A stretch of 64,000 nucleotides of DNA, from the NCBI RefSeq assembly GCF_015706575.1, contig NW_024037061.1:915897-979896 (forward strand), given 5' to 3'. Under the pieces are notes generated by a model that saw nothing but the letters and a program-made list of their open reading frames with translations, was not told where the DNA came from and did not search any database. The position numbers and the translations under genes were made by a program. The stretch's first letter is position 1. Each line of letters begins with the position of its first letter. Shown one piece after another: positions 36,371 through 63,639 of the stretch. The DNA comes from Patiria miniata. Its lineage: Eukaryota.

Positions 36371-36720
36371 ATTGGATAACGATATCACACCACTACTTGT
36401 TATGGTCAACCAACAGACCAATCCTCACTGACCTTTCATAAGACCAAGGTAGTTAGCAGTGCTTGTAGCACGCACCTGATTGGACAGTAAGTTCAGACAA
36501 AACCAAATCTTCACACAATTGACCAATCCTCACAGGCCATCTAGAAGCTGCAGGTAGTGTGGTGCCTGCAATTATAGCACGCCCCTGATTGGACATTAAG
36601 TCCAAAACAAGGCAAATCTCCACACAATTGACCAATCCTCACAGGCCATCTAGAAGCTGCAGGTAGTAGGGTGCCTGGCCCAGTTGTCTGGCTAGCTTGT
36701 TGGTCTTGAACATGATTGGA
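36371..36720. repeat. ~110-bp tandem repeat (~3.2 units, each starting c.tgattggaca) overlapping the REV3L stop codon and 3'UTR
   Basis: Units start at 36371, 36471, 36589 and 36711. The segment caattgaccaatcctcacaggccatctagaagctgcaggtag occurs twice. Confidence 0.8.
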
Positions 36721-36782
36721 CAGTCTAAAGACACACAGCTAGATGTGTCTTGTTCCTTGAAGTTGCAGCAGCTAGCGCAAAT
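36639..36782 (-). CDS. REV3L: REV3L terminal coding exon (CysB / Fe-S cluster region ICASCCNFKEQDTSSCVSLDCPIMFKTNKLARQLGQAPYYLQLLDGL, stop TGA at 36639-36641)
   Basis: Acceptor ttgtacag|. It matches the vertebrate C-terminus ICKNCTGCF...CVSLNCPVLFKLSRVNRELSKAPYLRQLL. The stop lies inside a ~110-bp tandem repeat. Confidence 0.88.
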   Translation of the reverse strand: MCASCCNFKEQDTSSCVSLDCPIMFKTNKLARQLGQAPYYLQLLDGL

Positions 36783-36967
36783 CTGTACAAACAATAATCC
36801 AAATTTCCAAATAATGGTAATAATTGGACCCATTGGACTAAATTGCATTACCTTTCATTTGTACCTGTACGATCTTTAATCCAAGTCAGATTTTTGATAA
36901 TAATTTTGTTGGTTACTTTTGGGATAAATGCAAATGATCCTACAAGCCATAAAAGTAAGCAACCAAC

Positions 36968-37129
36968 CTTGGCCATGTCTTGCTGGATTGACTGCCACTG
37001 CTGGACTCGGCTCAAGAGGGCAGTAGCCGTGACTTGACCCTTGGCCTTACAGTCACTACACAGGCTCTCCTTGGTAACCTTCTCGCAGATGACGCAGTTA
37101 AGACTGACGAAGTACTGCGAGATAGTTCC
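36968..37129 (-). CDS. REV3L: REV3L C-terminal zinc-finger (CysA) exon (GTISQYFVSLNCVICEKVTKESLCSDCKAKGQVTATALLSRVQQWQSIQQDMAK)
   Basis: Acceptor ccggcag| and donor AAG|GTTGGT. It matches vertebrate GTISQYFTTLHCPVCDDLTQHGICSKCRSQPQ. Confidence 0.88.
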
Positions 37130-37852
37130 CTGCCGGAAAAAGACAACAGTACTCTCTGTAAAAACCCCACCCGATGGTGTTTTGAGAAAATTATCATCTG
37201 CATGCTGTTAGTTTTCTTTCTTGACCCTAACCCTGCCAGACACAACACAGTGCATCAGGTGTCAAAGTCTGTGGGACCTTGCTGCACTGAGCCATCAACA
37301 CCAGTGCATAAACGGTCAATTCTGAGACAATGAGAGCTAGTCCCATTGAATAATGCCACAGTTGTATCCTGCTGCAGTCGGTGACCACAGACTCTGAGGC
37401 AGTTTGGCCTTGAGATTTCTGACCTGATACATCTTGCTACACTCGGCAGGCTTGTTATTATATCAAATGTGAATGTAGGACGTTGGAGAACAAAATCAGG
37501 ATAAAAGTAGGACTTTTGTGGGCTTTCAGGAGTAGTTTTCGTCGATACTCACCCATGTCCACAGCATCATAAGCCTCATTTGGCATGTTCTGTACTCACA
37601 ACACTTTTGCTCCATCCTCAACTAAGCTCTTGGAAGAACAGTTGCAGTACTCCTGCGCCCAAGCCCTTCATTGTGTGATTTACATATGACAGTGTGTAAC
37701 ACTGTTATGAAAAATATTCAAACAGATTTCATTTTCGGAGTTGTGGGGGGAAAGTAGGAATTTCAAGAAAAAAGTAGGAAAGCACAGTGAAAAACAAATT
37801 GGAAAACTAGGACAAGTAGGAACAATTGAAAGCCTGCAGTCATAAAACCGAC

Positions 37853-38020
37853 CTTTTTCCCTGGTGTCCCAAGCTGGTGGAGTGTATTAACCCTATGCCA
37901 CCTAGGGAGTTCCTGGTACCACTGCATGGTGTCCACGCCCAATAGGCCAAAGACTCGGTTCAGGGTGGGTACCAGTTGACGGGTCAGGTAATAGGTGGTG
38001 TTCAGTCGCAGGCTAGGATC
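37853..38020 (-). CDS. REV3L: REV3L exon (DPSLRLNTTYYLTRQLVPTLNRVFGLLGVDTMQWYQELPRWHRVNTLHQLGTPGKK)
   Basis: Acceptor ttttaag| and donor AAG|GTCGGT. It matches vertebrate DPTLRLNATYYITKQILPPLARIFSLIGIDVFSWYHELPR. Confidence 0.88.
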
Positions 38021-38099
38021 CTTAAAAGCGAGAAAAGAATTGTTATTAATTTATGATGGAATTCTGAATTAAGAAAATGTAAATAACCATACTGGTTCC

Positions 38100-38325
38100 A
38101 GTTCGTGTCGGAAGATGTGATAACACGCACTGGCTGTTTTTATACACAGGCACGGCTGACGGGTTAAGACGTCAAAATTGCCTCGATACGCCTCCGGGTG
38201 ACGTCTAAACACGCTAATCCTTCAGGTGGGACTCGAACCCACGACCTCCTGCTTACTAGTGCAGACGTCTTACAACTCGACCACCGAGCTTGCTACGGTC
38301 AGCTGGCTGGTCCAAATCTCCCCGA
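38100..38325 (-). mobile_element. Inverted copy of the 13640-13945 element (antisense tRNA-like head)
   Basis: Reverse-complement match. The minus strand shows GGTCGTGGGTTCGAGTCCCACC T-loop-like sequence. Confidence 0.5.
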
Positions 38326-38500: not shown

Positions 38501-38663
38501 GACCAGTAAATTAAGTGCTATAATATGAACACCAAATTATTATTATTAAGAAAATTCATCATCCGAGGGTAAATTCTGTTAATGACTAAAACAATGTTGA
38601 TGATAAAACAAACCAGATAGTTCTAATTATTCATCCAGATCAGGAATTGGGAGTCTGCTTTAC

Positions 38664-38790
38664 CTGTAGAACTTGACCAGGGGTACGTACTAGCTGTATG
38701 AGGGGTAACCCCGGGCTACCGTGTACGATGACGTAGGGTACGCGCTGACCAACGCGAGGCTCGGCACGGCGATCGACTGCAAGAAGCCGT
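38664..38790 (-). CDS. REV3L: REV3L exon (RLLAVDRRAEPRVGQRVPYVIVHGSPGLPLIQLVRTPGQVLQ)
   Basis: Acceptor caccccag| and donor CAG|GTAAAG. It matches vertebrate RKMLTYDRRSEPQVGERVPYVIIYGTPGVPLIQLVRRP. Confidence 0.88.
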
Positions 38791-38933: not shown

Positions 38934-39124
38934 CTGCTGATTTCCAGTGCCGGTACGCAGGCTCCCGGCCGGTACGTATGCTTGCCGCGATACTCCTTGG
39001 CGAAGACCAGGTCCTGCATGGTGGCCTGGCCGTCCAGAATCTTCTGGAATTGTTTCTGGACGTACTGCTTGATCTGGGACACGTCCCGCGTGGTGAAGAG
39101 GATCTTCAGGGCTCTCTCAAGAAT
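38934..39124 (-). CDS. REV3L: REV3L exon (ILERALKILFTTRDVSQIKQYVQKQFQKILDGQATMQDLVFAKEYRGKHTYRPGACVPALEIS)
   Basis: Acceptor ccttccag| and donor AG|GTAAGC. It strongly matches vertebrate KILFETRDISLIKQYVQRQ...FIFAKEYRG. Confidence 0.9.
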
Positions 39125-39229: not shown

Positions 39230-39890
39230 AATGACACTAGATGACTTATGATAGACTTGTGATGTCTTGTGAATGATTTGTGATGACATTTGACTGACTT
39301 TTGATGACTTGTGCTGGCTTGTGATTGACCTGTGATGACTTTTGATGTGATATGAAAACTTGAGTGATTAATGATGACTTGTGATGGATTTGTGATGACT
39401 TGTGATTTACGTGTGATATACTTGTGATGGCTTGTGGACTTGTGATTGACTTGTGATTGACCTGTGATTGACTTGTGATGACTTTTGATTTACTTGTGTG
39501 GACTTGTGATTGTTTGTGATGACTTGTGATGGACTTGTGATGGACAAGTGGTGGACAAGTGGTGGACTTGTGATGGACTTGTGATGGACTTGTGATGGAC
39601 TTGTGATGGACTTGTGATGGACATGTGATGGACTTGTGATGGACTTGTGATTGAGTTGTGATGGACTTGTGATTGACTTGTAATTGACTTGTAATTGACT
39701 TGTGATAACTTACGTTTATTTGTGATTGACTTGTGATTGACTTATGACTGACTTGTGATTGACCTGTGATTGACTTGTGATGGACTTGTGATCGACTTGT
39801 GATGACTTGTGATTGACTTGTAATTGACTTGTGATTGACTTGGGATTGACTTGGGATTGACTTGGGATTGACTTGAGCAACGACAAGTCA
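39230..39890. repeat. Minisatellite (tgacttgtgat / ggacttgtgat)n, ~60 copies, in a REV3L intron
   Basis: A direct 11-bp period is visible throughout. It is the same motif as 4790-5045. Confidence 0.9.
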
Positions 39891-39960: not shown

Positions 39961-40098
39961 CTTGCCAACCGCAGGACAGGAATCTCTGCGTACTGTCTCA
40001 ATCCCCTTAGCATCAAACTCGGGCTCAACCTGGTCAGGCGATTCGTAGCTGTAGCCAACGTAACGCTTCTTGGATTGCAAGACACACGGATGATAAAC
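39961..40098 (-). CDS. REV3L: REV3L exon (VYHPCVLQSKKRYVGYSYESPDQVEPEFDAKGIETVRRDSCPAVGK)
   Basis: Acceptor ctgcag| and donor AAG|GTATTT. The KKRYVGY motif is conserved. Confidence 0.9.
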
Positions 40099-40619: not shown

Positions 40620-40734
40620 CTTTTCCAGTTTGAGTTTGACCGGTTTGGGATTGGCAGCCGTGACAGCATCTCGGATCTCCCTCCCGACCTCAAAGGCACG
40701 CTCCTTGCTCGCTCCTTCAACCAACACAAACATG
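40620..40734 (-). CDS. REV3L: REV3L exon (MFVLVEGASKERAFEVGREIRDAVTAANPKPVKLKLEK)
   Basis: Acceptor ttcacag| and donor AAG|GTCTGT. It matches vertebrate MFVLLKGATKEQSFKIGQEIAEAVTATNPKPVKLKFEK. Confidence 0.9.
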
Positions 40735-40859: not shown

Positions 40860-41030
40860 CCTGGATGGGATACCAGCTAATGCCGGTACCCATTCATACT
40901 CCTGGGTGGAGAGAGGCAAGGGGGGTGAAGTGGCTTGCCCAAGGACACACATATGGCCAGCGGCTGGATTCGAACCCCTGACTCTCTGATTACGAGTCAC
41001 AAACCCTAACCACTAGACCACACTCCCCCA
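40860..41030 (-). mobile_element. tRNA-derived SINE, uninterrupted copy (same family as 2395-2845)
   Basis: Minus strand reads GGGGGAGTGTGGTCTAGTGGTTAGGGTTTGTGACTCGTAATCAGAGAGTCAGGGGTTCGAATCCAGCCGCTGGCC, then a body collinear with 2395-2524. Confidence 0.6.
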
Positions 41031-41438
41031 TGGCAATCCCATGGCAGTCCCATGGCAATCCCATGGCAATCCTATGGCAATCCCATGGCAATCCCATGGC
41101 AATCCCATGGCAATCCCATGGCAGTCCCACATGAATCTATGAACCCACCTGTCCGTGTCCCCATAAACCACTCTAACCACTAGACCACACTCCCCCATGG
41201 CAATCCCATGGCAATCCCATGGCAATCCCATGGCAATCCCATGGCAATCCCATGGCAATCCAATGGCAATCCCATGGCAATCCCATGGCAATCCCATGGC
41301 AATCCCATGGCAATCCCATGGCAGTCCCACAGGAATCTATGTACCCACCTGTCCGTGTCCCCATAAACCACTCTAACCACTAGACGACCCTCCCCCATGG
41401 CAATCCCATAGCAGTCCCACAGGAATCTATGTACCCAC
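41013..41438. repeat. Composite tandem structure: (catggcaatc)n 10-bp minisatellite blocks (41020-41130, 41195-41330) alternating with two extra copies of the 3' end plus donor of the REV3L motif-C exon
   Basis: The segment cccacaggaatctatg(a/t)acccacct(g/a)tccgtgtccccataaaccactct occurs at 41126-41175, 41326-41375 and in the real exon at 41418-41466. Confidence 0.8.
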
Positions 41439-41548
41439 CTATCCGTGTCCCCATAAACCACTCTGGCTCCCCACTTCTTAGTGCTTTCCACCATATGAAT
41501 GGCTCTCTCCAGTGTCTCACGTCCCTTTCTCACCACGCTGTCACCAAC
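41439..41548 (-). CDS. REV3L: REV3L polymerase motif C exon (VGDSVVRKGRETLERAIHMVESTKKWGARVVYGDTDS)
   Basis: Acceptor ctgacag| and donor AG|GTGGGT. The catalytic YGDTDS motif is conserved. Confidence 0.9.
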
Positions 41549-42243: not shown

Positions 42244-42351
42244 CTCGATGCATGGCATTCGCCCAGAGAAGTTTGCCGATGTGTAGCCGTAGGTGACGTT
42301 GGCTATCAACTTAAGAGCCAGCTGTCGGCTGTTCAACATGCGATGTAGCGT
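42244..42351 (-). CDS. REV3L: REV3L polymerase motif B exon (TLHRMLNSRQLALKLIANVTYGYTSANFSGRMPCIE)
   Basis: Acceptor ctcaacag| after a long pyrimidine tract, and donor GAG|GTAGGT. The KxxxN(S/V)xYG motif B is conserved. Confidence 0.9.
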
Positions 42352-42691: not shown

Positions 42692-42761
42692 CTTGTCATC
42701 CTTAAAGTCCTTGAGAGACTTCTTGACGATGAGACGGAGTTTGAGAATTTGCTCCAACATC
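42692..42761 (-). CDS. REV3L: REV3L exon (MLEQILKLRLIVKKSLKDFKDDK)
   Basis: Acceptor taaacgcag| and donor AAG|GTAAAA. It matches vertebrate MLEEILKTRFMVKQSMK. Confidence 0.82.
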
Positions 42762-43738: not shown

Positions 43739-43882
43739 ATTGGTAGGACACCACGGCGGACACTGGGCTTGACAAACACGATGCCGTTGGGGGAGACGTG
43801 GAGGCTGTCAGACTGGTAGAGTTTCTTGAGTTGGGACACGGAGACAGACAGAGAGCCACATCCCAGGGCATACTCCCCACCA
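43739..43882 (-). CDS. REV3L: REV3L exon (GGEYALGCGSLSVSVSQLKKLYQSDSLHVSPNGIVFVKPSVRRGVLP)
   Basis: Acceptor ttcccaag| and donor AT|GTAAGT. It matches vertebrate ...ITVSPNGVAFVKPSVRKGVLP. Confidence 0.85.
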
Positions 43883-44229: not shown

Positions 44230-45120
44230 AACAGTGACATTACGGGGTCATCCTATACAATAGCACCCTGGCTCACAGGGACAAGCAAAGGTGGCAGTAC
44301 AGGGTAATCCTATACAATAGCACTGCCCAGCTCACAAGTGACGGTCAGTTAGTGAGTCAGGGATTGACAAGCAAAAATGGCTTTACAGGGTTATCCTATA
44401 CAATAGCACTGCCCAGCTCACAAGTGACGGTCAGTTAGTGAGTCAGGGATTGACAAGCAAAAGTGGCGTTACAGTGTAATCCTATACAATAACACTGCCC
44501 AGCTCACAAGTGACGGTCAGTTAGTGAGTCAGGGATTGACAAGCAAAAATGGCGTTACAGTGTAATCCTATACAATAACACTGCCCGGCTCACAAGTGAC
44601 TGTCAGTTAGTGAGTCAGGGATTGACAAGCAAAAATGGCGTTACAGTGTAATCCTATACAATAGCACTGCCCGGCTCACAAGTGACAGTCAGTTAGTGAG
44701 TCAGGGATTGACAAGCAAAAATGGCGTTACAGGGTAATCCTATACAATAGCACTGCCCAGCTCACAAGTAACGGTCAGTTAGTGAGTCAGGGATTGACAA
44801 GCAAAAATGGCTTTACAGGGTTATCCTATACAATAGCACTGCCCGGCTCACAGGTGAGGGTCAGTTAGTGAGTCACGGATGGACAAGCAAAAATGGCATT
44901 ACAGGCGGGTTATCCTATACAATAGCACTGCCCGGCACACAAGTGACAGTCACTTAGTTAGTTGGTGTTCAGTCAGTGAATACAGCGGACTATAGGTTGG
45001 CCCTCTCGTGGGCCAGCAAAAGTGGCCTTAGGGGGTAATCCTATACAATAGCACTGCCCAGCTCACAACTGACAGTCACTTCGTCAGTGAGATAGTCAGT
45101 GACGTACAGCAGACTATAGG
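44230..45120 (+). repeat. 86-bp tandem repeat (~8-10 units) derived from the gggtaatcctatacaatagcactgccc interspersed element
   Basis: cctatacaat recurs at 44309, 44395, 44481, 44567 ... (period 86). A single-copy element head lies at 44060-44230. Confidence 0.85.
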
Positions 45121-45172: not shown

Positions 45173-45334
45173 TTGGCAATGTGTTCTAAGCGTCCGAGGC
45201 ACGTAGAGTAGCAGTAGTTATAAGCAATCATCATGGTAGGATAGAGAGACTGGAAATCCAGCACGATGACAGGATCCTGATAGAAACGAGACTCAGGCTC
45301 CATGACCAACGGGATGCACTCCGGTGCCTTCATT
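45173..45334 (-). CDS. REV3L: REV3L polymerase motif A exon (MKAPECIPLVMEPESRFYQDPVIVLDFQSLYPTMMIAYNYCYSTCLG)
   Basis: Acceptor tgacgtag| and donor AA|GTAAGA. The family-B polymerase motif A (DxxSLYPS) is conserved. Confidence 0.9.
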
Positions 45335-45655: not shown

Positions 45656-45738
45656 CTTGAGCGTTGTTGCACGCTGGGTGACATGGCAACGTAGTTCTGT
45701 GGTTTCGCTGTCCTCAACATCATGGACTCAACGCGAAA
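45656..45738 (-). CDS. REV3L: REV3L exon (FRVESMMLRTAKPQNYVAMSPSVQQRS)
   Basis: Acceptor tgtgtacag| and donor AG|GTAAAG. It matches vertebrate YRVESMMLRIAKPMNYIPVTPSVQQRSQ. Confidence 0.88.
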
Positions 45739-46499: not shown

Positions 46500-46641
46500 C
46501 TGTGATCCCCTGGAGAGCACCGAGTAGAACTGAATGCCAAAGACCCTGGCTAACTCGCTGGTCCGGCCGATCAAATCCAACTGATGGAGAAGTTTGAGAG
46601 ATCCACGGACCCTGACTGAGTAGTACTCTATCACTCGCCAT
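46500..46641 (-). CDS. REV3L: REV3L exon (RWRVIEYYSVRVRGSLKLLHQLDLIGRTSELARVFGIQFYSVLSRGSQ)
   Basis: Acceptor tttgttgcag| and donor CAG|GTAAAA. It matches vertebrate ...VRGNLQMLEQLDLIGKTSEMARLFGIQF..TRGSQ. Confidence 0.88.
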
Positions 46642-46789: not shown

Positions 46790-47395
46790 AAAAGATATTG
46801 TATGTATTTTTGGCCTCAACAAAACAGTTAAATAAGTCACATGGCAAAAGCTACGGTATGGTACTTTGGCCAAAGTGGAAAAAGTGGTGTTCATTTGGGC
46901 AAAAATGGCAAAAACTATGGTATTTTTGGCAACGTGGCAAAAGCTGTTGTCATTATGGTAACATGGCAAAACCTATGGCATTTTTGGGCAATGTGGCAGA
47001 AGCTGTTGCTATTTTGGCTACGTAGAAAAAGCTATGGTATTTTGGGCAACATGGCAAAAGCTATAGTATTTTGGGAAATATGGCGAAAGCTGTTGCTATT
47101 TTGGCAACATGGCAAAAGCTATGGTATTTTGGGAAACATGGTAAAATTAAAAGCTATGGTATTTCGGGCAAGGTGGCAAAAGCTACAGTATTTTAGCAAC
47201 CGTTGCAAAAGCCGTGGTATTTTGGGCAAGGTGGCAAAAGCAATGGTATTTTGGGCAAGGTGGCAAAAGCCATGGTATTCTAGCCAACGTTGCAAAAGCT
47301 GTTGAATTTTGGGCAACGCGGCAATACCCATGGTATCTGGGGCAACATGGCAAAACCTATACTATGTATTGGCCCCACTTGCAGGTCCCAAAGAG
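46790..47395. repeat. ~30-bp minisatellite (ggcaa[c/g].tggcaaaagc.atggtattttg)n, ~20 copies, in a REV3L intron
   Basis: Direct periodicity. It generates the spurious plus-strand ORFs 46729-47405 (MAKATVWYFGQ...). Confidence 0.85.
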
Positions 47396-47529: not shown

Positions 47530-47651
47530 CTGAATAGTTGCGCATTTCGGTGGTCGAACCAGTCGGTCAGTTTACGGAAGGTGAAGAGAGGCACACGTTG
47601 ATGCAGGACGTGGAACGCAACGTTCTCAAACGTGTAGTTAGTCAGGGCCAC
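47530..47651 (-). CDS. REV3L: REV3L exon (VALTNYTFENVAFHVLHQRVPLFTFRKLTDWFDHRNAQLF)
   Basis: Acceptor ttaactag| and donor AG|GTTGGT. It matches vertebrate VALTNYTFENVSFHVLHQRFPLFTFRVLSDWF. Confidence 0.88.
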
Positions 47652-48147: not shown

Positions 48148-48266
48148 CTCGTGTCTCATGAGCCGCCACAGGTTCAGAGTGATGCGGCCTGCGATGTTGA
48201 TTTCCGATTGGTGGTCCGCTCCGTACGCATCCCGCTCCGCCGAGAAACTACTCTCCTTCTTGAAGT
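48148..48266 (-). CDS. REV3L: REV3L exon (DFKKESSFSAERDAYGADHQSEINIAGRITLNLWRLMRHE)
   Basis: Acceptor ttttgttccag| and donor GAG|GTCGAA. It matches vertebrate ...AAERDEYG...INIVGRITLNLWRIMRNE. Confidence 0.88.
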
Positions 48267-48904: not shown

Positions 48905-49020
48905 CAGGTAATCTTGAGATCTGGGTGCACAGGTCCATGTCCAGGAAGGCAGCTCGTTGCAGCAGATAGCCCCAGGAAAGCTGCTGGACTTCATAGCCCA
49001 CCAAGATGTCTGGATCGTGC
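48905..49020 (-). CDS. REV3L: REV3L exon (HDPDILVGYEVQQLSWGYLLQRAAFLDMDLCTQISRLP)
   Basis: Acceptor cttgaccag| and donor G|GTAAGT. It matches vertebrate WDPDILIGYEIQMHSWGYLLQRAAAL. Confidence 0.88.
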
Positions 49021-50694: not shown

Positions 50695-50727
<33 letters not shown>

Positions 50728-50757
50728 AGTTAAAAAAAAAAAAAAAAAAACTATTAC

Positions 50758-50914
50758 CATCATCTTGCTGGCTGCACCCTGCACTGTCTTGCACTGGCTT
50801 GTCATGCTGGATACTATAGAACAAAGCTCGGATGGGATCAAAGTCAGGGTCTGGGCAATAGTCACGTCGGGTCTTAACGTGAAGCTCCAAGCTCAGGACA
50901 GTCAGATGCTGCAC
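50758..50914 (-). CDS. REV3L: REV3L exonuclease-like domain exon (VQHLTVLSLELHVKTRRDYCPDPDFDPIRALFYSIQ...)
   Basis: Acceptor gtcatacag| and donor G|GTAATA. It strongly resembles vertebrate NLTVLSVELHARTRRDLEPDPEFDPICALFYC. Confidence 0.85.
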
Positions 50915-51307: not shown

Positions 51308-51427
51308 CTCATGCATCGTCTTGGCATCCTGCATGTTCAGCTGTGGCATCTTGAAGCCGCACGTGTTGCTGGGCGTGGCTCCTTCTATTTGAGACATCTC
51401 CCGGCCTGGCCCGCCGACTCCAGAGCT
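51308..51427 (-). CDS. REV3L: REV3L exon (SSGVGGPGREMSQIEGATPSNTCGFKMPQLNMQDAKTMHE)
   Basis: Acceptor ggtttgcag| and donor GAG|GTTGGC. It resembles vertebrate ...NTYGFK...NLQEAKALHE. Phase is 0-0. Confidence 0.75.
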
Positions 51428-51769: not shown

Positions 51770-51900
51770 GTTTTTTTTATAAAGTTGAACAAAGAAATTG
51801 ACTGGAGTAGGGTTTGAACCTGCGACCTCCAAATTGCCGGTCTGGTGCTCTGTCAACTGAGCTATCCAGCCCTATGTTGGAAGTTCCCCAATTTTGCTTT
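51770..51900 (-). mobile_element. Second copy of the tRNA-like mini-SINE (see 18812-18935) in a REV3L intron
   Basis: Minus strand reads GGCTGGATAGCTCAGTTGACAGAGCACCAGACCGGCAATTTGGAGGTCGCAGGTTCAAACCCTACTCCAGTC plus A-tail. The long ORF 51777-52820 reads through it. Confidence 0.5.
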
Positions 51901-51965: not shown

Positions 51966-52830
51966 CTCTTTTGGAGTGAAGAGCAACGTCTGTCTCATGC
52001 TGGATGAGGAAGGATGCCTTTCTCTGGATCCACCTGCTGAGGATGGATCCAAGGGTCGCTTCCATCCACTGATGGGGGTGAGTGGCAAACTGGCTTCCAC
52101 TGTCCCTGGGTCGACTCTCAGAGGGGTACTGTGCTGAGGCTGGCTGCTCCCCCTCCTGGATAATGGGTTAGTCCCCGGCGTGCTCAATCGGGGCTGAATG
52201 CTGTTCTTTTTCCAAGGGGTGGGGCTGGAAAACGGGGAGCCTCCTTGTGGGGTAGAGTCGGGTTTGGTTGAAGGTGTGCTGTTCTTTTGCCAGTGGGGTA
52301 AATATCCCTTTGGTGTTTGTATCTTAGAGGTGGATGGTTCGTCTTGCAATTGTTGGCAAGCCTGTGTCGCAGACGCTGCACTTTGCCTCCTATCCTGATT
52401 TGATTGTGAGACTTCTTCAGGGAAGCCTTGACTGGGGCCTTTAGAGCTGGAGGTCTTATTGGCAGGATCAAAACGAGTTACCTTTTCCTTGACTGGCTTT
52501 TCAGCTAGCTGTGTGCCATTGGTTTCTTTGTCACCATATTTCGCATCTTCAGGGCGCTTGTCGTTTTTATCCTCCAACCAAGTCCGAACCAACGCACAGC
52601 TCGGCGGAGATCTACAAGGCGTGATCACAGCATCAGCTTCCCCGAGCAATGCAGCTTTTAATCCAGGTTCGGGGGCCACATTGCTAGCCGACAGCAAGGG
52701 GTGTGGCTGCAGGGCCATCAGGTTGGCCTGCCATTGGCCGAGGCCAGTCTGGGAGAGTCTACTCTCTGCCTCGGGGAGGCGGGATGGGAGGTTGCTCTGT
52801 AGATGACCATCATTGTGCACACCAGGTTTA
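51966..52830 (-). CDS. REV3L: REV3L exon following the giant exon (KPGVHNDGHLQ ... ITPCRSPPSCALVRTWLEDK ... RQTLLFTPKE)
   Basis: Acceptor ttatctttttcgcag| and donor GAG|GTATTG. Phases are consistent on both sides. ITPCRSPPSCALVRTWLEDK resembles vertebrate IMPCKCAPSRQLVQVWLQAK. An internal alternative donor (AAG|GTAACT at 52482) has the same phase. The ORF seen downstream of 51966 is read-through into a SINE. Confidence 0.6.
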
Positions 52831-53126: not shown

Positions 53127-56100
53127 CTTGGATGGTGTGCGTCATCTGGATTCCCGCAAAATGCCCTCTGGTGGTGGAACTGAGGCAGGCCATACTCTTG
53201 CAGAGATGCCCGCACCATCTCAGCACTTGGGGGACAATGTGAAGGTGTCCAAATTGTGCTCTTTGCCTCCGTAAACGACGTCAGGTTTGGCATTTCTTCT
53301 GCTCTGGAGGTAGTCTGATGTGTGTTTTGCGTCTGATTAGTGTTTTGGTTATCGCTTTCTAGAGAGGATGCTAGTGGAGGTCCTGGGTAGACTGGAGTAC
53401 TTTGTGAGCTGTCATGAGCCTGGTTTTGGACAGCCTTATCCTCTACATCATCTTCTACTGGATGGGTGTTATTCTTGTGCTGATGGCCTCTGTCTGTTTG
53501 CTGACTAGGGTGAGCAGAGAATGCCGAGGATACTGGTATTTCCCTTGTAGACAACAGGGAATCTTGGTGCAAGGCAGATGTTTGTGTCTGGTCCGTACTT
53601 GGTGGTGAAGTTAGACTTTCGTCGTTGCGACCTGGCTGAGAAGTTTGATTGATGGCAGTCTTCTTTGTTACAGTGCTGTCCGAGTGTGCAGGCGGCTGAA
53701 AATGATGACCAGAGTAAACAGTGGGATCTTCACCACTAAGTGATGAGGACCATTCAGACTTAGTCGCGGTAGAGGTCCTATCTGTAGCTTCTCTGTCTCT
53801 GTGGAGATGCCTAATATCTTCTGGATGTTGGGACTGCTCATGTGACTCCCTTACCTGGTATGATGGAGAGTGTCGCGTAGACAGGTTTAGGCTTCCACTC
53901 TCCTCTTGAGACAAGTCAATCTCCATTGCCTCCACCTCTTCATCTGAGTCAGCCTCTTCAACAATTCTTGGAGAACTGGGCGAATTCAACTTGAGTGCTG
54001 ATTCCTTCTTTGTTGGGGACGAAAGGTTCAAGGGCTCTTCGCAGGCATCACCTGTGCTGCTCACTGTTAACTTTTCAACGGCCGGAGATGATAGATATCT
54101 CTGTGTCTTGCTTTCATTTGTGACTGGTATCGGTCTGCCAGAGGATGGGGTATCTGACTGTGAACAGGGCTTTTTCTGGGAGGACCTGTGAGGATCAAGT
54201 GAGGCTCTTGGTGAAGGAGTTTCCGGACAGACAAGCTGTGAAAACGTATCAGAATCATCACTGTTGCTGCCCGATAGGAGATGCCTTTTAGTCTGGTCTT
54301 CCCCAACAGCAACTGAGCCATTCTTAAGTGTCCTTGCACATGTGATTCTGATTTCACTAAAGCTGCATGCACTGAGACCAGAAGAATCTGTTTGTTTACC
54401 CGAAATCAAAGTGGGTGTCAGACTTCCATCATCCATTAGGACATGATCAGATGGATGTCGACTCCTTTGATGATCTGATCCTGTTTCTTTCAAGACTGCA
54501 TCTTGTGTACTCCATGTGTCTTGAGACAAATCAAGAGCACCCGATGATTCCCCAAATTGGCTCCAATGATCTGCTGTCTCGGACACAGAACTTGCCTTCT
54601 GTTCTGTCTTTTGATAATCTTTGGTGATCTTCTCTTGAACAGCTTCCGGGGATCCAGGTGGGTCCTGTTGCAAGGAGCTTCTCTCTGACTCTAGTAATTC
54701 TCTGGTTGGGGAAATGGAAGGTACACGGCTGATGATCAGAGACATGTCTAGTGACAATGATGCACCTGTGCTGCTGGAGCCGTGGGACATGTTACAGATG
54801 TTATCGCTATCCTCTTCTTCCACTTCTTGGCTGGGAGATCTGCGCAACCTCTGTGCTGGTGTGATGTCATCAGAGGACGAACTGAGACTCCTGGCATTTG
54901 GAGTGCCTCCATCACCCAAGGCCTTCACATCCGGTGACAGGGGTCTGTGTTCCGCTTCGGTACCAGAACTCGGCTTGGAAAGAAGTTCAGACCCTGTGGC
55001 AGAGGAACTTGAATCCAAGTCGGAGGTCTGAATATCAGACATCGCAGAGGAATTAGCACAGTCATCCAGACTCTTTCTCTGAGGCATCTGGGCTTGGCCG
55101 TGAACGCAGGTCATATAACCATCTGAATGACCAGCACTCTGTGACATTTTGGCAACTTCTGGATGAGATGGATGTAATGATGCCGCTTTCTTTGTGTCTG
55201 GGCTTGGGGTTGATGCTTCACTGTCCTCCGCAAACATTAATGCACTATCATCAGGAGATGCATTTTCAGTGACAGCAGTTACCCCATTCTGAGTTGCAGT
55301 CAGATTTGTCAACACGTCCACCGATTGATTCTTTTCCAGATTTTTAACCCCAACGACTGATGCCAAGACATTAGTTGTATCATTAGAATCAAGTGAGAGT
55401 TGTACAGGGCTAGACTGTTCGGTTTTCTCAGAAAAGGCCACTCTGCTACTTTGTACACTACCCAATGCAACTTCCTTTCTCTCCTCATGAGTACCTCCAA
55501 CATCGACATCAGCTTCCTTGAGAGTTGTACAGGAGTTTAGAGTGTTGTTCAACTCTGGAGAGTCACCTGGCTTGGTTTGAGATGAAGTAGGGTTAGATGT
55601 TTTGTCGGCTCTTTCTGAGCTCAGGATTGGGATTTCGTTATTGCCAGTTTCAGTTTTGTAATTGTTTTCGTTGGCCAAGTCATCAGGATGCGAGTTCCCA
55701 CAGGAGGTAAAGCCATTCCTTGCTTCTTCCTGACGGGAAGCTTCCACGCCTCTGTGGCCGTCTGTGTGTGTACTTTCTTTCTGTTCTTCACTTGTGACAT
55801 CTGCCTTAGTTTGGTCAACTTCCATCTTGTTTTCTTGCTTGTCCTCAAAAGTTTCACTTCTCACCGGTTCACCTTCATCAAAATTGTCAGTATTGCACAA
55901 ATGTTTAGACTCTGGACTCCTGCTTCTACTGTTGGAGGTCCTGGAGTTGGAGGTATTCAGCTGCGTGTAATCTGTTTGATTCTTCCCCTTCAAGCCAGCA
56001 GTACCACTCTGCGACTTCCCCCTGTTGGTATCTGCGGCTTTCTTCTTAGACTCTTTCTTTTGATCGATCAGTTTCATTCTTTCCCAAGGCTTCTGTACCT

Positions 56101-59067
56101 TGGAGGGTTTATGCTTAGGGGTTATCTCAACAATGCCTTCAGAAGCATGTTGTGCCCTCCTTGAGCTATCCCTGTCGATACTTGGTGACCAGCACCTGGG
56201 CGGTGAGCCCTCTCTTTCATTTCTGTGGGGAGAAAAGTAACCCAGGTTCCACATGGCGTCCCTGTAGAGAGTGGGCTCACTGTCGTCATCATGGATGCTG
56301 GAATGATGCCCATTCACAGTGGTAGGGACAGGTTCAGGTCTAGAGCGAGGCCGGTGTTGGTCATTTGTGGAGACACTTGTGGACAACTGGCTATCAGTTG
56401 CCTTGGTCACAGGTGATTGCCTGGTATCTGACTGAACCACCTTGGCTTGGGTAGCTGTGGGTATGGATGGCAATGGTCCACCCAATGAGCTGTGGCTAGT
56501 GGCGGTAATCATGATTGGCTTCGCTGATCTGGTTTGCGCAAGTTCCATCAAGCTGTTGTTGTGCGTTGCACAATTGCCAGTGGTGGTTGAAGCTGGTTCC
56601 ATCCAGTTGGTGTGCTTTGTGCCATTGCTAGGTGTGGTTGGAACTGGTTCCATCCGGCTGGTGCTTTGCGTTGTACTACTGCTAGTAGTGGTGAAAACTG
56701 GTTCCATCTGGCTTAAACTGTGTTTTACATTATTGGTATACATGGTTGGTTCCAAGTTGGTGTTGTGAGTTTTAATTTGATTTTCGCCATTGCTCGCTGT
56801 AGTTGGCATTGTTCCAATTCGACTTTTATCCGGCTTTGAACCTATGTATGGTAATGAGTCAACGGTGAAGGACAAGTGCTGCTTGTGTCTTGATGAGGGA
56901 CTACTGAGGAGTTTGGATTTTTTTTTGCTACCACAGGGGCGTCCTCTTTTACGTGGGGGACTCTGTTGCTGCTCCTGTACTGCTTTTGCTGTTTGATTGC
57001 AGGCCAGGAGAACAGAGCTGCTGGATTTCATTGTTTTATCAAACCTACGCGGTTCTGAGAGTGGTTGTGACTGTTGATGTGGCTGAGGCTCTGGCAGCAA
57101 CTCGGTAGTTCTTGTCTCCGAGTGCATATGAGACCTCTGTGGGAGAAGCTCTACGGAGTCCTCTTCATCTGACCAACACATGATCTCAAACCCGACGTCG
57201 GGAAAATCGCCTTCATCGTAGCTGATTCTCTCCCTCTTACGAAAGCCGTAGGTCCTGCCGAACATCCACGGGTCCTCGTTACTGTTGGAGCCTTGACTGC
57301 TTTTTCGTTTGTGACTTTTCCGCCTCTCAGCCCAGTCATCACTGCTGTCACTCCCTCGGCGTTTCCTAGAACCTGGACTGCTCTTCTTAATCTGCTTGGT
57401 AGTTTCCAACGGTTCAAAGAGTGCCGTGAAACTGCTACTTTGGCCTGGAGATAAACCTACCCCCAACAAATGACTAGATGGCGTGGTCGTCATTGCAAAA
57501 TTACTGATACTACTACTTGTTGGAATTACTGAAGTGACAGGGCTGGAAGTCTCAGATTTGGAGATTCCAGGATCCACAGCTGTGCTTTGTGCAGCTTCTG
57601 AGTTTGTTATACATGATGGCTCTCCACAAGGTTCTTGAGGAGTCAAACTGAGTTTGTTAAAAGTTCTTGAGAGCATCCCATACCTCTTGGCATCTCTCTC
57701 TGAGAAAAGTTTGCCGTGTGAGCCTTTCCTACTCAATTTTCTGTGTTTGTCAGAGGAGTTTAAACTCTTGTAGTACTTCTCTTGAAGCATGGCCTTTGTC
57801 TTTGTGACGACTGTCTGCTTTTCAGGACATGTCTGCTGAGCAGGAATTCCATTGCCTACGGCTGCTATCTTCTCCAAGACTGGCATTGGAAGATTGTCCT
57901 TAACGCTTGCAAGTTGAGCTGGTGACATCAAGCACGGTGGTTCTTTGGCAATTTCTGACGCATCTTCCCTCTGCACCTCTGATTTGTCTGGGACTGTCAC
58001 TTGAACCCTATCCTTCTCTGCTGTCTCCTCGATTTGTTTATGAGGGCGTCTGCGCTTTATTTTGGGTGTCGAACCAGTGTTTAACTTTTGAGGAGAGCTG
58101 CCAAGTTGTTCTAAAGTCTTCTGTTTGGATGCTTTCTCTATCTGGTCCATCCAGTACTGCTCGTCCATAAACTTTTTTGGGGGTACAATCTTCCTTGAGA
58201 AGCTGCTGCGACGGAATGGCATAGCTTTTAGATTTTCCTTCCGGATCTGTTCTAATTGCTGTTGCGGTAAGCTGGTTCCAGAACAGGTGATTCTTCCCTT
58301 GGAGTCAGTTTCGATTGGGCACTTCATGAGCATAACAACAGGGTTCCACATAGGGTCCTTCTTCACATCACCGACACTAGAATATCCTTTAAGCTCCTCA
58401 CATCCTTTGAAATGGGTTTGGCCTGCTGTGTAAGGCACTTTTACAAGGTGTAGTTTGGATGAGCCTGCTTGATGTTGTGGAGCAGTATTAGTGTCAGAAG
58501 CGGGATCCCTCACCAAAGAAGCTTCCACCTGAACATTTCCTGGAGGGATGTGGTTTGCCGAACTCCTCCCTTGGGTGACTTTTTCTACCACCTTCCATTC
58601 AGAAGAAGATTGGCTCCGGATAGCTCCAGGATCTTTGGACAACAGTTTATCCCGAGCAAGTTCCTGCAGCCACTGCGTTTTCAAAGAAGCTCCTGATAAG
58701 ATTCTTCTCCGTTTGGATTTCGATGCAGCAGCAGGTCTGACTTCCACTGGTTTCTTTGGGACCTTGTGGAGATTCACAACCCCAGGTGGTGTTCCGGTTT
58801 TCTTCCGGATGCCTGGTTTCTGGGCAAGTTTTCTAGCACGCTGAAAGACAGATTTTTGCATTTCCCGTGTGTCAGAGGATGCCAGACCTGTATTGACCCA
58901 AGCCTTTCCTGGACTGGACAGAAGCTGCTTTTTGTGGGAGTAGGTTTTGATCTGGGGCGGAAAGGGACTGAACGTTGCGGCATGGCTTCCCAGAGCATCT
59001 TGATGCAAGTTGGGAGCGACCTTGGGAAGTTGCCTTTTAATGCCAAGACTTTTCTTCTTTGCTGGTT
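53127..59067 (-). CDS. REV3L: REV3L giant central exon (~1980 codons; Ser/Thr/Pro-rich disordered region, contains SPPRCWSP and an AT-hook-like PRKRGRP)
   Basis: A single 5.9-kb open frame on the minus strand. Its 5' end has a strong acceptor (tttgttttctttgtttttccgtcag| at ~59068) and its 3' end a donor (CATCCAAG|GTAATT at 53126). Vertebrate REV3L has an equivalent giant exon. The SPPRCWSP and FCxNPxD landmarks are conserved. Confidence 0.88.
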
Positions 59068-59251: not shown

Positions 59252-59346
59252 CTTGTTTTTCATCGGAGCCCCCGTCAAATTGAGGAATAGTGACAGCTTG
59301 GCTGTCCTGTGTGTCTTCCTCACTGGCTGATATGTCATGAGTTGTG
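59252..59346 (-). CDS. REV3L: REV3L exon (TTHDISASEEDTQDSQAVTIPQFDGGSDEKQ)
   Basis: Acceptor ctattacag| and donor G|GTAAAC. G plus AA from the giant exon gives Glu. Confidence 0.7.
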
Positions 59347-59786: not shown

Positions 59787-60003
59787 CTTTCTTCCACAGT
59801 ATCCTCCCCATCAGAACCATCATCCCAAGCTTGGGACATCTCTAAGGACTCTCTGGCATCCTCGTCCTCATCCTTGTTCTGCTCCTCCTGTCTCTGCTCA
59901 TCCTGCGTGTCCTGGCTGGACAGGATGCTGCCGTCTTCTGGGGACGGACCACCGTCCTGAGCCAGGTCCACCAGCAACTGGGCTAAATCTTCATCATCCC
60001 CAC
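59787..60003 (-). CDS. REV3L: REV3L acidic exon (GDDEDLAQLLVDLAQDGG...SLEMSQAWDDGSDGEDTVEE)
   Basis: Acceptor tcaccag| and donor AG|GTGAGG. It resembles vertebrate EALVHLLAGLESDG ... SLVMSQRWDSNIEEH. Phase chaining is correct. Confidence 0.7.
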
Positions 60004-60310
60004 CTGGTGACAAATGACAACAAATGACACAAAAATATGACGGACATGGCCTCCAGCACCTGGACTAGGTCTTGGTCTTCCCCAGCTGGTGACAAATGAC
60101 AACAAATGACAAAAACATATGACAGACATGGCCACCAGCACCTGGACTAGGTCTTGGTCTTCCCCAACTGGTGACAAATGACAACAAATGACACAAAAAT
60201 GACAGACATGTCCACTAGCAACTGGGCTAGATCTTGGTCTAACCCAACTGTTGACAAATGACAACAAATGACAACTAATGACAACAAATGACAAAACATG
60301 ACAGAGGAAC
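59965..60310. repeat. ~88-bp tandem duplication x4 spanning the 3' splice site and first ~38 nt of the REV3L acidic exon
   Basis: Units at ~59965-60053 (authentic), 60054-60146, 60147-60232 and 60233-60310. Each carries ...ggtgacaaatgacaacaaatgaca... plus an exon-like ccagcacctggactaggtcttggtcttcccc segment. Confidence 0.8.
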
Positions 60311-60889: not shown

Positions 60890-61372
60890 CTGGACATCCG
60901 GAAATGTTTCATTCGATAAAAAAACAAGAATTTGATAAATCTTATCATGAGTAGGCCATACTTTGTCTTTATTGAAGCAAAGTTTCAGATTATCAAAGAT
61001 TGTTAAAAAGAGGACTGATTGTTGAATTATCGAAAAATGTAAATAACAGCGCTCTGATTATCAGATACTTCTACAGACAGGGCAAGTTTTGCATTCAATT
61101 CGCAGATGGAATTTTTGTGTTGCATATTAAGCCTAGAAACGTGTGACAAACTCACTCCATGTATTTGTCGATTGGAGTGAATCAGTATAAAACTGCCAGG
61201 CATGTACAAAAACGTCAAACTTGTGCGCTACGTTAATACCTTTTTGCGAGCTTTTTTATATTACCATTATTTTTAAAATTATGTTTGCATTCCAAGCTGT
61301 GCAAACAATCATCAGGTTTTGACAGATAGTGACATCATGGTTCAAAAGACAATATTAGCAAGTCAAACCAAC

Positions 61373-61488
61373 CTGCATACTGGGAGTCGTGGACAATGAG
61401 CTGGCTGGCAGTCAACGACGGCTCAGCCAACGTGTCATGAAGAAGGCTTTCATTGTCATCATCTCCAGCATCTCCGGCCAACACCCTC
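61373..61488 (-). CDS. REV3L: REV3L acidic repeat exon (RVLAGDAGDDDNESLLHDTLAEPSLTASQLIVHDSQYA)
   Basis: Acceptor tttaccag| and donor G|GTTGGT. The unit is 116 nt and phase 1. Confidence 0.65.
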
Positions 61489-61979
61489 CTGGTAAAGGTC
61501 ATTACAAAGGTCATCAAGAGGTCAAAGGTCAATACAAGGGGTCGTTATAAGTAAATCACGAGTGTTTGTCCAAGACTAGATTTCAACTTTATTCCTCTTA
61601 TATAACCTGATCTCGATAAGCGCAGTATTGCCGCTGTGGCAGTAAAGATCACTATCAACAATCAAGATGAATTATGAGACTTTGGAACTTTGGCAACGCT
61701 ACCCAGGAAATTCAGAGTATAAATGCAACCCAGGAAATTCAGAGTACGGTATACCTCAAGTGCGCTGTATGCAAGCTAGTGCACGCGCGTGTGGTACTCT
61801 TAGAATTTTCTGGGTACTGCTGCCGAAGTTCCCAAGACTTCCGTAAAGACTTACGATGAGCTTGACTACAACAGTTAAAAATGGCGTTGAAGCATCTCCA
61901 GTTACCGATAATGTTTTCTTTTTACTATGAATACGGCTGAAGGCCTTGCTATTCATTGTCAATCTGAACTCATACTTAC

Positions 61980-62064
61980 AATTCATCGAGTTGTTTCTGT
62001 ATAATATCGGCCAGTCTTGCTTTGCCATGCACCTCGCTGTCTGTATCTTCTATAACTCCTCGAT
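61980..62064 (-). CDS. REV3L: REV3L exon (RGVIEDTDSEVHGKARLADIIQKQLDEL)
   Basis: Acceptor ttttcag| and donor TT|GTAAGT. Phases chain from the upstream exon and into the next one. Confidence 0.65.
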
Positions 62065-62449
62065 CTGAAAACAAATAACAAACCATGAATCTGCTGTGGA
62101 TTTTTGATAACTTTTCATGAAAAAAAAAGGCCGGATTTGAACCTGCGTCTCCACCCTAATTAAACAGCTGAAAAGATGCCAGTTTTTTTCCAACACTGTT
62201 CATACAAAAATGCTATTTATCTTGAAAATGACAGCACACCAGGTGCCGTGATTTTACAGGATGCTTTAGACTGTCATTCACTAACAGTCCAATAAGGTAT
62301 TTCATAATAGTTTGCTAGTTTTGCTGTTTGATGTGTGCAAATGTTGTATATTCCCTTGAATTGCATGCTTGAAAATAAACAATTAAAATAAAATACACAA
62401 CTCTGCAATTTTCAGATTTTTAAAAAAAGTATCTGAGACTGCACTCTAC

Positions 62450-62554
62450 CTGGAGACGCTGGGGGGTGGAGATCATCCAGTTGACCCTTGACCTCTCTCC
62501 TCTCCTTCTCCTCATTGTAGATAGCAAGAAGGCCAGGGTTCATTTCAGTATTTC
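62450..62554 (-). CDS. REV3L: REV3L exon (NTEMNPGLLAIYNEEKERREVKGQLDDLHPPASP)
   Basis: Acceptor tctcag| and donor G|GTAGAG. It resembles vertebrate NPGLQAIWEDEKQRR. Phase is 1-1. Confidence 0.65.
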
Positions 62555-63541
62555 CTGAGAAAAAAAAATCTCTTTTTAAAATAGGATTGGAAAAGATTGG
62601 AGTTTTCCCTGTACCTTTTTCTTTTCAACACATTTGGTTTCATAAGAGTATATACACTATAAAAATGTGTCCACAAAGTCTATGTCTCAACCACTAAACA
62701 CCAAGTCATAACACTATGAATTTCAACACCGTGAATTTGGAGTGAATATATAATTTGACATGAATTCACCGTGAAGTTTTTTTTCACGGCGATGTCATTG
62801 CGAAGTATCTGGTGAAATCGCCCTGAAAACCATCACGTAACCAGGACATGTTAAAGTCAAGTAAAAACACCGTGAAAATGCAGTAAAGCCTTCTGTGGAG
62901 CCCAGCTCATTAACTTTGTGGTTGCGTTAATCCGTTGAGCAGTTTATCAACTTTGGGGCCTAATCCTCCTCATAAAAAGGCACATTGCCTGTCAATCTTA
63001 ATTAGGTGATCACAATAAACAGGGTGTTGGATACTTGTAGGAGGAGACTTTGTAGCTTTTGTGTACTTGGGCAGTGGGCATTGGGTAGTAAGTGTAGCTG
63101 TCAATCACACTAATCCTGTAATCACTCAGACCGTTAATCTGTGGTTTTCACACCTTCAGTGGAGTGAAGCTGGACCTGCTATACAGTTATGAATAACAAT
63201 AGACCCTTGGACCTCATGAAACTGAGTGAGCTAATATCCCCTGCTGAGGGCCCAGTTTGGCACCTTGAAAATGAGCTTACTTGGCAGTGTAAAAAAGTTT
63301 CACAGTGACTTCATTGTAAACTATATTTTTACGGTGTTGAAATTCATGGTGTAAATGTACCGTACAACACCACCACCACATAAGCTTTTGTTGTTCGTTG
63401 CCCTCATGAAATTGTTTTCATGCTAACGTTGTGCCAGTAAATGTCTTCTGTTTTTTGCATAATGATGACGGTTCATATGCCACTTCCAGTTTGCCTCCAA
63501 CATGAACTGTCCGATACAAATAAAATGCTGCTAATTAATAC

Positions 63542-63639
63542 CTTGTAGTTCATGACGGTTCAGAATGTCGATTGCCACAGCATCAACTTCCAGTTCACAT
63601 ACACTCTGCTTCTGAATTTCAGCGTCTAATAGTAAGCCA
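63542..63639 (-). CDS. REV3L: DNA polymerase zeta catalytic subunit (REV3L) N-terminal-region exon (GLLLDAEIQKQSVCELEVDAVAIDILNRHELQ)
   Basis: Minus-strand acceptor tttaaacag| and donor G|GTATTA. STCELEVDAVAADILNRLDIE-like conservation with vertebrate REV3L (recalled from memory). Phase is consistent with the next exon. Confidence 0.65.

Follow-up and report, generated by a model that had tools for sequence, protein, structure and literature searches.

DNA polymerase zeta (Pol zeta), a translesion polymerase, is well understood. The human form of its catalytic subunit, REV3L, has 3,130 amino acids (aa) and a giant exon 14. In mammals, the giant exon encodes 1,386 aa and has one REV7-binding motif within it (PMC6895278); such motifs have the consensus phi-phi-x-P-x-x-x-x-P-S-R (PMC4333420). 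Human REV3L is cleaved by Taspase-1 (TASP1) at Q-L-D/G-T-A-D, a site in which the D and the G are essential and the Q and the final D important (PMC7144948). The large exon has been called vertebrate-specific, possibly born by retrotransposition in a vertebrate ancestor, and the TASP1 site has been called an acquisition of vertebrate evolution (PMC13408197, 2026). Here we describe a locus in a 64,000-nt stretch of DNA (the window) that is almost certainly the gene for Pol zeta's catalytic subunit, a REV3L orthologue that is transcribed from the minus strand and whose exons for the N-terminal domain lie beyond position 64000. As this is the orthologue of a thoroughly studied gene, its identity and mechanism are already known. 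We also tentatively propose that it gives a non-vertebrate example of the giant exon and of the TASP1-type motif upstream of it.

Identification of a gene for the Pol zeta catalytic subunit

The protein predicted from the spliced exons matches the Pfam families DNA_pol_B (343 bits, E = 2.7e-102, one unbroken match over profile positions 2-450 of 453), DNA_pol_B_exo1 (E = 1.9e-15), and zf-C4pol (E = 4.5e-11, profile positions 1-69 of 70). When all PDB chains were searched with phmmer, the best matches were to yeast Rev3 (7lxd and 6v8p; E = 4e-198, 664 bits), with a score more than double that of Pol delta (306 bits) and about five times that of Pol alpha (about 122 bits). The match to yeast Rev3 is a single alignment of 867 residues that spans about 20 exon junctions. 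The named relatives in the databases are labelled as DNA polymerase zeta or REV3-like. The polymerase motifs A (VLDFQSLYP), B (KLIANVTYGYT, 42280-42312), and C (VVYGDTD/S) are all present; YGDTD occupies 41441-41455, and the splice to exon 23 completes the codon for the S of VVYGDTDS.

We rebuilt the gene independently of the exon table in a preliminary description of this DNA. Coding cores were taken from stop-to-stop segments and from a tblastn scaffold, and for each pair of neighbouring cores we considered all frame-keeping GT (or GC) donors and AG acceptors, using simple position-weight matrices. The scaffold was a human REV3L sequence that served as a lead only, and no conclusion rests on it; read by eye, a mammal-like database fragment (P0003) looks identical to it in the C-terminal part. 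Both ends of the gene and one ambiguous junction were judged by eye. The result is a series of 29 exons on the minus strand, from 63639 to 36639, each bordered by AG and GT and with matching phases. Together they total 10,312 nt and form one open reading frame (ORF) of 3,436 codons, closed by its only stop, a TGA at 36641-36639. The exon that comes first in the window has a good acceptor at 63639 (TTTTTTTTTCCTTCGATTTTTAAACAG/TGG) behind a long pyrimidine tract. G+C content is 50% in the exons and 40% in the introns, and the median intron is 588 nt.

Two database sequences are closest to this gene among those that we found. P0002, the closest database protein, is an uninterrupted ORF of 1,031 aa on a 3.3-kb Logan contig (L002, from SRR6173504) that looks like a transcript. 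L001 is a 10-kb contig from the ENA metagenome assembly ERZ26222911, and its protein is P0001. The exons are as follows; where no other remark is given, an exon is supported by the splice-site scan, the spliced ORF, and the alignment to P0002.

63542-63639 (-): exon 1 in the window, 98 nt, start phase 2, end phase 1, donor AAG/GTATTA; tail of the N-terminal region (…CELEVDAVAIDILNRHELQ), inside the block aligned to residues 50-272 of Tribolium REV3
62450-62554 (-): exon 2, 105 nt; splice-site scan, spliced ORF, and alignment to Tribolium REV3
61980-62064 (-): exon 3, 85 nt; splice-site scan, spliced ORF, and orthologous exon in L001
61373-61488 (-): exon 4, 116 nt; splice-site scan, spliced ORF, and L001
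60773-60889 (-): exon 5, 117 nt; splice-site scan, spliced ORF, and L001
59787-60003 (-): exon 6, 217 nt; the final unit of an 82-nt minisatellite makes up its acceptor and first ~36 nt; splice-site scan, spliced ORF, and L001
59252-59346 (-): exon 7, 95 nt; bears the TASP1-type motif Q-F-D-G-G-S-D at 59262-59282
53127-59067 (-): giant exon 8, 5,941 nt, 1,980 codons; open frame, and orthologue in L001
51966-52830 (-): exon 9, 865 nt; REV7-binding motif 2 at 52596-52628
51308-51427 (-): exon 10, 120 nt
50758-50914 (-): exon 11, 157 nt; degenerate ExoI LTVLSLELHV (50876-50905) and DPDFDP (50834-50851)
49866-50040 (-): exon 12, 175 nt; weak acceptor, picked by homology
48905-49020 (-): exon 13, 116 nt; degenerate ExoII region DPDILVGYEVQQLSWGYLLQRA
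48148-48266 (-): exon 14, 119 nt
47530-47651 (-): exon 15, 122 nt
46500-46641 (-): exon 16, 142 nt
45656-45738 (-): exon 17, 83 nt
45173-45334 (-): exon 18, 162 nt; motif A at 45238-45264
43739-43882 (-): exon 19, 144 nt
42692-42761 (-): exon 20, 70 nt
42244-42351 (-): exon 21, 108 nt; motif B KLIANVTYGYTSANFSGRMPC at 42250-42312
41439-41548 (-): exon 22, 110 nt; ends in motif C, whose Ser codon is split by the intron
40620-40734 (-): exon 23, 115 nt
39961-40098 (-): exon 24, 138 nt
38934-39124 (-): exon 25, 191 nt
38664-38790 (-): exon 26, 127 nt
37853-38020 (-): exon 27, 168 nt
36968-37129 (-): exon 28, 162 nt; CysA cluster CVIC…CSDC at 37049-37096
36639-36782 (-): coding part of exon 29, 144 nt; CysB cluster CASC…C…C at 36720-36779, then the stop TGA

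Of the 19 junctions from 10/11 to 28/29, 18 are free of nearby gaps in the alignments to yeast Rev3 and to P0002. In the alignment to P0002, at junction 10/11 and at junctions 12/13 to 28/29 there is no insertion or deletion within 10 residues, with two exceptions, which are single-residue gaps (3 residues before junction 15/16 and 9 residues before 27/28). Other gaps near junctions fall in poorly conserved loops, just after 9/10 and on both sides of 11/12. Exon 9 is 52.6% identical to L001 from end to end, and the aligned block is exactly residues 2258-2548 of our model. A better-scoring GT donor inside exon 9 (at 52482) was rejected, as the open frame continues to 51966 and the exon has a match in L001 over its full length. 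Junction 11/12 (donor 50758, acceptor 50040) was chosen on homology because the pyrimidine tract of the acceptor is weak. Another acceptor for exon 12, at 50108, would add 23 residues that derive from a poly-T tract and are missing from all relatives. At the other end of the model, exons 1-7 align to residues 50-272 of a partial REV3 from the beetle Tribolium (P0021, E = 2.6e-16). The model's first residue aligns to position 50 of that protein, which is consistent with a missing 5' end.

These results agree closely with the preliminary description, which had assigned the locus to the Pol zeta catalytic subunit on the basis of its motifs. Its 29 exons with consistent phases are what the rebuild yields, its end coordinates (36639 for the stop codon and 63639 for the acceptor) are exact, and its coordinates for the 1,980-codon exon (59067-53127) and for the following exon (52830-51966) equal ours. 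A six-frame motif search placed all seven of the peptide landmarks that it quoted on the minus strand, where it had put them. It had also set the 5' end of the gene beyond 64000, in accord with the alignment to Tribolium REV3. Such an exact reconstruction of 29 exons in a 27-kb gene, made without tools, validates the coordinates that were derived by hand elsewhere in the window.

Exonuclease-like domain, cysteine clusters, and motifs for partners and cleavage

Exon 11 holds the exonuclease-like stretch that had been described earlier (LTVLSLELH…DPDFDP), in which ExoI is degenerate. Compared with yeast Pol delta, the protein has lost three of its four exonuclease carboxylates: the first Asp of ExoI, the Asp of ExoII, and the Asp of ExoIII are replaced (FDIEC by LSLELH, NFD by LSW, and YxxxD of ExoIII by Y-S-V-R-V). 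Yeast Rev3 shares this degenerate state. The C-terminus has two four-cysteine clusters, CVIC…CSDC and CASC…C…C, which are the CysA and CysB clusters reported before.

The preliminary description had asked for REV7-binding motifs in the giant exon and in exon 51966-52830, and at the level of sequence we found one in each:

53222-53254 (-): REV7-binding motif 1, IWTPSHCPPSA, 30 codons before the end of the giant exon
52596-52628 (-): REV7-binding motif 2, VITPCRSPPSC, in exon 9; aligns to the human REV3L peptide that was crystallised with REV7 (6ekm_B and 6bc8_B)

Each conforms to the known consensus (PMC4333420) save for the last residue, which is not Arg. Upstream of the giant exon, Q-F-D-G-G-S-D (59262-59282) keeps all four of the residues that are critical for cleavage by Taspase-1 (Q, D, G, and D). 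The counterparts in L001 are QLDGGSD, KIWTPIHHPPSF (REV7 motif 1), and AVITPCRSPPSI. The beetle protein P0021 has IPQLDGSGDE and both REV7-type motifs, and a REV7-type motif is also present in a sea-anemone REV3 (P0077).

From what is known of the family, we infer that the gene encodes a polymerase of the B family whose proofreading domain is dead. During translesion synthesis, this polymerase would extend primers past damaged or mismatched template sites and distorted termini. The two adjacent proline motifs would each clamp one REV7 (MAD2L2) subunit, and a CysA zinc module and a CysB iron-sulfur module, both predicted, would dock the accessory subunits POLD2 and POLD3. Q-F-D/G-G-S-D, just upstream of the giant exon, is a plausible Taspase-1 site, and cleavage there would part the N-terminal domain from the rest of the protein. 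What lies between this site and the first REV7 motif is a largely low-complexity spacer that is encoded by one 5.9-kb exon.

The giant exon and its age

The giant exon is open over 1,980 codons, and the other two frames there hold 68 and 144 stops, so its open frame is not due to chance. The introns that flank it have phase 1 on the 5' side and phase 2 on the 3' side. The encoded spacer is rich in Ser (15%), Thr (8%), Pro (7%), and Lys (7%). It is 36-47% identical to its orthologue in P0001/L001, and the islands that are conserved between the two include KKDPMWNPVVMLMKCPIETDSKG…FMDEQYWM; RTYGFRKRERISYDEGDFPDVGF; an AT-hook-like PRKRGRPxGSK; EPTLYRDAMWNLGYFSP…GSPPRCWSP; SHGSSSTGASLSLDMS…VPSISPTRE; and FSQLVCPETPSP. 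Two of these islands need coordinates:

56918-56956 (-): AT-hook-like motif PRKRGRPCGSKKK, with PRKRGRP at 56936-56956; QRKRGRPPGSKNK in P0001
56183-56278 (-): EPTLYRDAMWNLGYFSP…GSPPRCWSP island, with SPPRCWSP at 56183-56206; weak match to the C-terminal end of DUF4683

We also note an in-frame coding tandem repeat in the giant exon (56542-56708, minus strand; 51/54 nt, about 3 copies, MEPVFTTT… / MEPVPTTP… / MEPASTTT…). At about the same place, L001 has a different short repeat (SKPVTTG…), which suggests recurrent local expansion.

A 73-aa segment around SPPRCWSP matches profile positions 375-410 of the 411 in DUF4683 (PF15735) with 20.2 bits (E = 5.6e-4), and the equivalent segment of P0001 matches the same profile positions with 23.9 bits (E = 4.1e-5). 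The Pfam cut-off for this family is 27 bits. At the sequence level, then, the tail of DUF4683 is the only part of that domain that is recognisable in the giant exon. The SPPRCWSP landmark named in the preliminary description is indeed in the exon, but its match to DUF4683 is sub-threshold and limited to the last 36 positions. The AT-hook-like PRKRGRP was found as described, and it is conserved in P0001; the Pfam AT_hook model does not report it.

We tentatively propose that the "vertebrate" giant exon, together with the TASP1-type motif upstream, is already present in this non-vertebrate REV3L, and that the combination of a DUF4683 landmark and an AT-hook-like motif in one exon hints at AT-hooks in an ancestral giant exon and at the descent of AHDC1 and NEXMIF from that exon; support and doubt are nearly balanced here. 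The AT-hook-like motif would fit an ancestral exon that carried such motifs, but this is speculation from one short motif. The exon also occupies the same slot as the vertebrate one, between the exon with the TASP1 site and the exon with REV7 motif 2, and it ends just after REV7 motif 1, which is the arrangement described in a review for mammals (PMC6895278). The match to the C-terminal end of DUF4683 recurs in two species at the same profile positions, and an arthropod-like fragment (P0023) bears LLRDVLWKLGRFSP…PPCPSSP as well.

It is possible instead, although we lean against it, that the giant exon is an independent, lineage-specific expansion of the spacer that is not homologous to the vertebrate exon, with the shared short motifs as older anchors. 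The DUF4683 match covers just the last 36-39 of 411 positions and is below threshold. A search of a 5.8-billion-protein collection with the giant exon gave a single match, P0001, and when 761 central residues were compared by phmmer with all of 1.84 billion representative proteins, P0001 was again the one match. (An exact look-up of the giant ORF in an assembly index returned no record.) In Tribolium, the TASP1 motif and REV7 motif 1 are about 120 residues apart, which implies that the length of the spacer is very plastic, and the in-frame tandem repeats would reflect ongoing expansion. Against an independent origin stand the shared slot, the DUF4683 match in two species, and the arthropod-like fragment.

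If the source of the window is an invertebrate, then this locus and L001 would show that the huge central exon and the Taspase-1 site predate the vertebrates, and that the exon is very plastic in length, with the same anchors about 120 residues apart in a beetle and about 1,940 apart here. Such a result would touch on a published proposal in which cleavage arose as a way to cope with an insertion specific to vertebrates. An origin of the giant exon and of the TASP1 site before the vertebrates would, if true, be of modest interest to Pol zeta specialists.

Relationship to vertebrate REV3L

To place the gene, we compared 725 well-aligned columns that are shared across the polymerase domain and ran 100 neighbour-joining bootstraps. 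The identities to a bat protein were:

bat - turtle: 92%
bat - medaka: 81%
bat - lamprey: 69%
bat - window: 64%
bat - pearl oyster (bivalve): 64%
bat - sea anemone: 63%

The gene in the window is thus as far from the bat as the bivalve and sea-anemone genes are, and below the value of at least about 69% that is typical of vertebrates. In 90 of 100 bootstraps, the vertebrates (lamprey among them) group together to the exclusion of the window. The window pairs with P0002 in all 100, and the tree does not fix the wider position of this pair. Judged by these alignments, the gene is not a vertebrate REV3L.

That it might nevertheless be a vertebrate REV3L, from a fish or another group, with the known vertebrate exon 14 as its giant exon, strikes us as quite improbable. 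Its architecture does look like a vertebrate's, with the giant exon, SPPRCWSP, two REV7 motifs, and the TASP1 motif, and the named matches with the highest identity over the full query are from vertebrates, at about 60%. However, the REV7 and TASP1 motifs are no markers of vertebrates, as the beetle protein has both and the sea-anemone protein has a REV7-type motif, and both the identities and the bootstraps place the window outside of the vertebrates. Where the preliminary description saw the giant exon as a mirror of the one in vertebrate REV3L, the slot and the order of motifs are the same, but the gene itself is not a vertebrate REV3L.

Tandem duplications at exon edges

At three places, a tandem duplication runs over the edge of an exon:

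41027-41475 (-): duplication of motif C at the start of intron 22 (intronic part 41027-41438), with decoy donors after 41349 and 41149
59968-60273 (-): 82-nt minisatellite, 3.8 copies, at the border of intron 5 and exon 6; its last unit gives the acceptor of exon 6
36466-36677 (-): 109-nt tandem duplication, 1.9 copies, 89% match, over the final 36 nt of coding sequence, the TGA, and ~70 nt at the start of the 3' untranslated region

In the first of these, the last 23 nt of exon 22 (RVVYGDTD), the GT donor, and about 45 nt of intron are present in two extra copies in intron 22. These copies share 98% identity with one another and about 80% with the authentic copy, and they are interleaved with a (GGGATTGCCAT)n microsatellite and joined to the tRNA-like head of a short interspersed element, or SINE (GTCTAGTGGTTAG). 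Use of the decoy donor after 41349 would keep the frame and insert 30 residues into motif C, while the one after 41149 would shift the frame. Both decoys read CAG/GTGGGT, and the authentic donor of exon 22 reads TAG/GTGGGT. In the minisatellite, near-identical decoy acceptors for exon 6 (…TTGTCACCAG/) lie 82 and 164 nt upstream; a splice at either one would shift the frame. The authentic reading frame is undisturbed by all three duplications, and we expect that the authentic sites are the ones that are used.

These duplications are the one reason to suspect that the locus is a pseudogene in decay or an artefact of mis-assembly rather than a working gene, and we consider this very unlikely. The 10.3 kb of coding sequence, which includes an exon of 1,980 codons, has no frameshift and no premature stop; all of the catalytic motifs of the polymerase and all eight C-terminal cysteines are intact; and the authentic splice sites are kept, with one correct copy of each duplication adjoining the exon. 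That the locus encodes some other B-family polymerase, such as POLD1, can be dismissed: submitters labelled one of the database relatives as POLD1 and one as Pol delta, but the more than twofold higher score of Rev3, the loss of exonuclease carboxylates that Pol delta retains, and a long spacer with REV7 motifs, which is a feature of Pol zeta, all speak for Pol zeta.

Several points weigh against our account of a working REV3L gene. The gene model is predicted from the genomic sequence and from homology, and the N-terminal domain (except for its tail) and the start codon are outside the window, beyond 64000. The acceptor of exon 12 is weak. In our crude position-weight model, the decoy donors in intron 22 score equal to or above the authentic donor, so some aberrant splicing is possible. 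REV7 motif 2 aligns to the peptides in 6ekm and 6bc8 with weak E-values (0.09 and 0.31), because these PDB peptides have only 28 residues. Finally, DUF4683 is undetected at its curated threshold, and scans of segments of 600-1,300 aa gave no match to it.

Other features of the window

Within the REV3L introns, we noticed several repeats: an 11-nt unit repeated 60 times in intron 24 (39242-39875), an 86-nt unit repeated 7.9 times in intron 18 (44280-44962), and a 29/58-nt unit repeated 17 times in intron 15 (46857-47360), which is the source of a spurious plus-strand ORF (46841-47305). A homopolymer run of 52 nt (50699-50750) directly follows the donor of exon 11. There are three tRNA-like elements, at 51799-51871, 18856-18928, and 38222-38287, all on the minus strand and all above the Rfam threshold for tRNA. 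Two of the three are called tRNA-Ala(GGC) by ARAGORN, and two sit in introns 9 and 26 of REV3L. They are probably the heads of tRNA-derived SINEs and not working tRNA genes. Rfam reported nothing else in the whole window.

The ratio of observed to expected CpG is 0.61 for the window, 0.41 for the giant exon, and about 0.50 for all REV3L exons; this depletion is compatible with gene-body methylation. Downstream of REV3L, G+C drops to 32-35% over 20000-36000, which is a gene-poor stretch.

In positions 1-36000, Pfam gave nothing above noise for seven ORFs. Two open segments on the plus strand (2824-3114 and 4456-4707) have hydrophobic stretches that look like transmembrane segments (…LLVVSIFHLVLGVLSVGLGVAAIIL… and MQIIAFLVMSILSSVVAGLLLLEAAIG…) and no Pfam match; they may be exons of a small multi-pass membrane protein. 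The open frame of 287 codons at 8098-8958 (plus strand), also without a Pfam match, is rich in Gln, Gly, and Val and has degenerate repeats (QQVGIGSQQVGIGSEQ…), and it could be a low-complexity coding exon or a mere repeat. Further plus-strand segments at 11155-12164 and 14303-14695 are Ser-rich and Lys/Arg/Glu-rich (…SSSDSSSSDSSSANSSSSG…, …KKQRRREKKREERRKKKKEL…, and …RPVQGPARPVQGPTRPIQGP…). Their Pfam matches are at the level of noise, and they are reminiscent of a nuclear protein of the SR or basic type.

Comparison with known systems

The best match among relatives of solved structure is Rev3 from S. cerevisiae (6v8p and 7lxd). It aligns contiguously to the protein from the window over the exonuclease-like domain, the polymerase domain, and the cysteine clusters of the C-terminus, and its degenerate ExoI (LTHLTLEIH) resembles the one here (LTVLSLELH, 50879-50905). 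The spacers differ: the yeast spacer has ~280 aa, and the one here has about 2,300 aa with two phi-phi-x-P-x-x-x-x-P-S motifs, which the yeast spacer lacks (PMC4333420, PMC7144948).

AHDC1 carries two AT-hooks and DUF4683 in one large coding exon, and DUF4683 is common to REV3L and NEXMIF (PMC12476444). The giant exon in the window likewise has both an AT-hook-like motif and a stretch that matches DUF4683 at its C-terminal end. In contrast to the gene here, AHDC1 and NEXMIF are stand-alone vertebrate genes with a single coding exon and no polymerase, and the resemblance consists of one short motif and a sub-threshold domain match.

Vertebrate REV3L has the same order of parts: a TASP1 motif, a disordered spacer in a giant exon with REV7 motif 1 at its end, REV7 motif 2 in the next exon, and then a dead exonuclease domain, motifs A, B, and C, CysA, and CysB. 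As in mammals, one REV7 motif is inside the giant exon, and the SPPRCWSP island weakly matches the end of DUF4683 here. The differences are that the polymerase domain in the window is about 64% identical to the vertebrate one and falls outside of the vertebrate clade; that the giant exon is about 43% longer than in mammals (1,980 versus 1,386 codons); that DUF4683 is below threshold; that the REV7 motifs end in PSA and PSC instead of PSR; and that the TASP1 motif is QFDGGSD instead of QLDGTAD. To our knowledge, human REV3L has no AT-hook-like motif, and PRKRGRPxGSK is present here.

The closest sequences remain P0001/L001 and P0002/L002. L001 is collinear with the window over exons 3-9 and has a giant exon of about 2,000 codons; it shares the TASP1-type motif (as QLDGGSD), both REV7 motifs, the AT-hook-like motif, and SPPRCWSP. 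The identities (36-47% over the giant exon, about 60-70% over the polymerase domain) mark these sequences as coming from different, fairly distant species.

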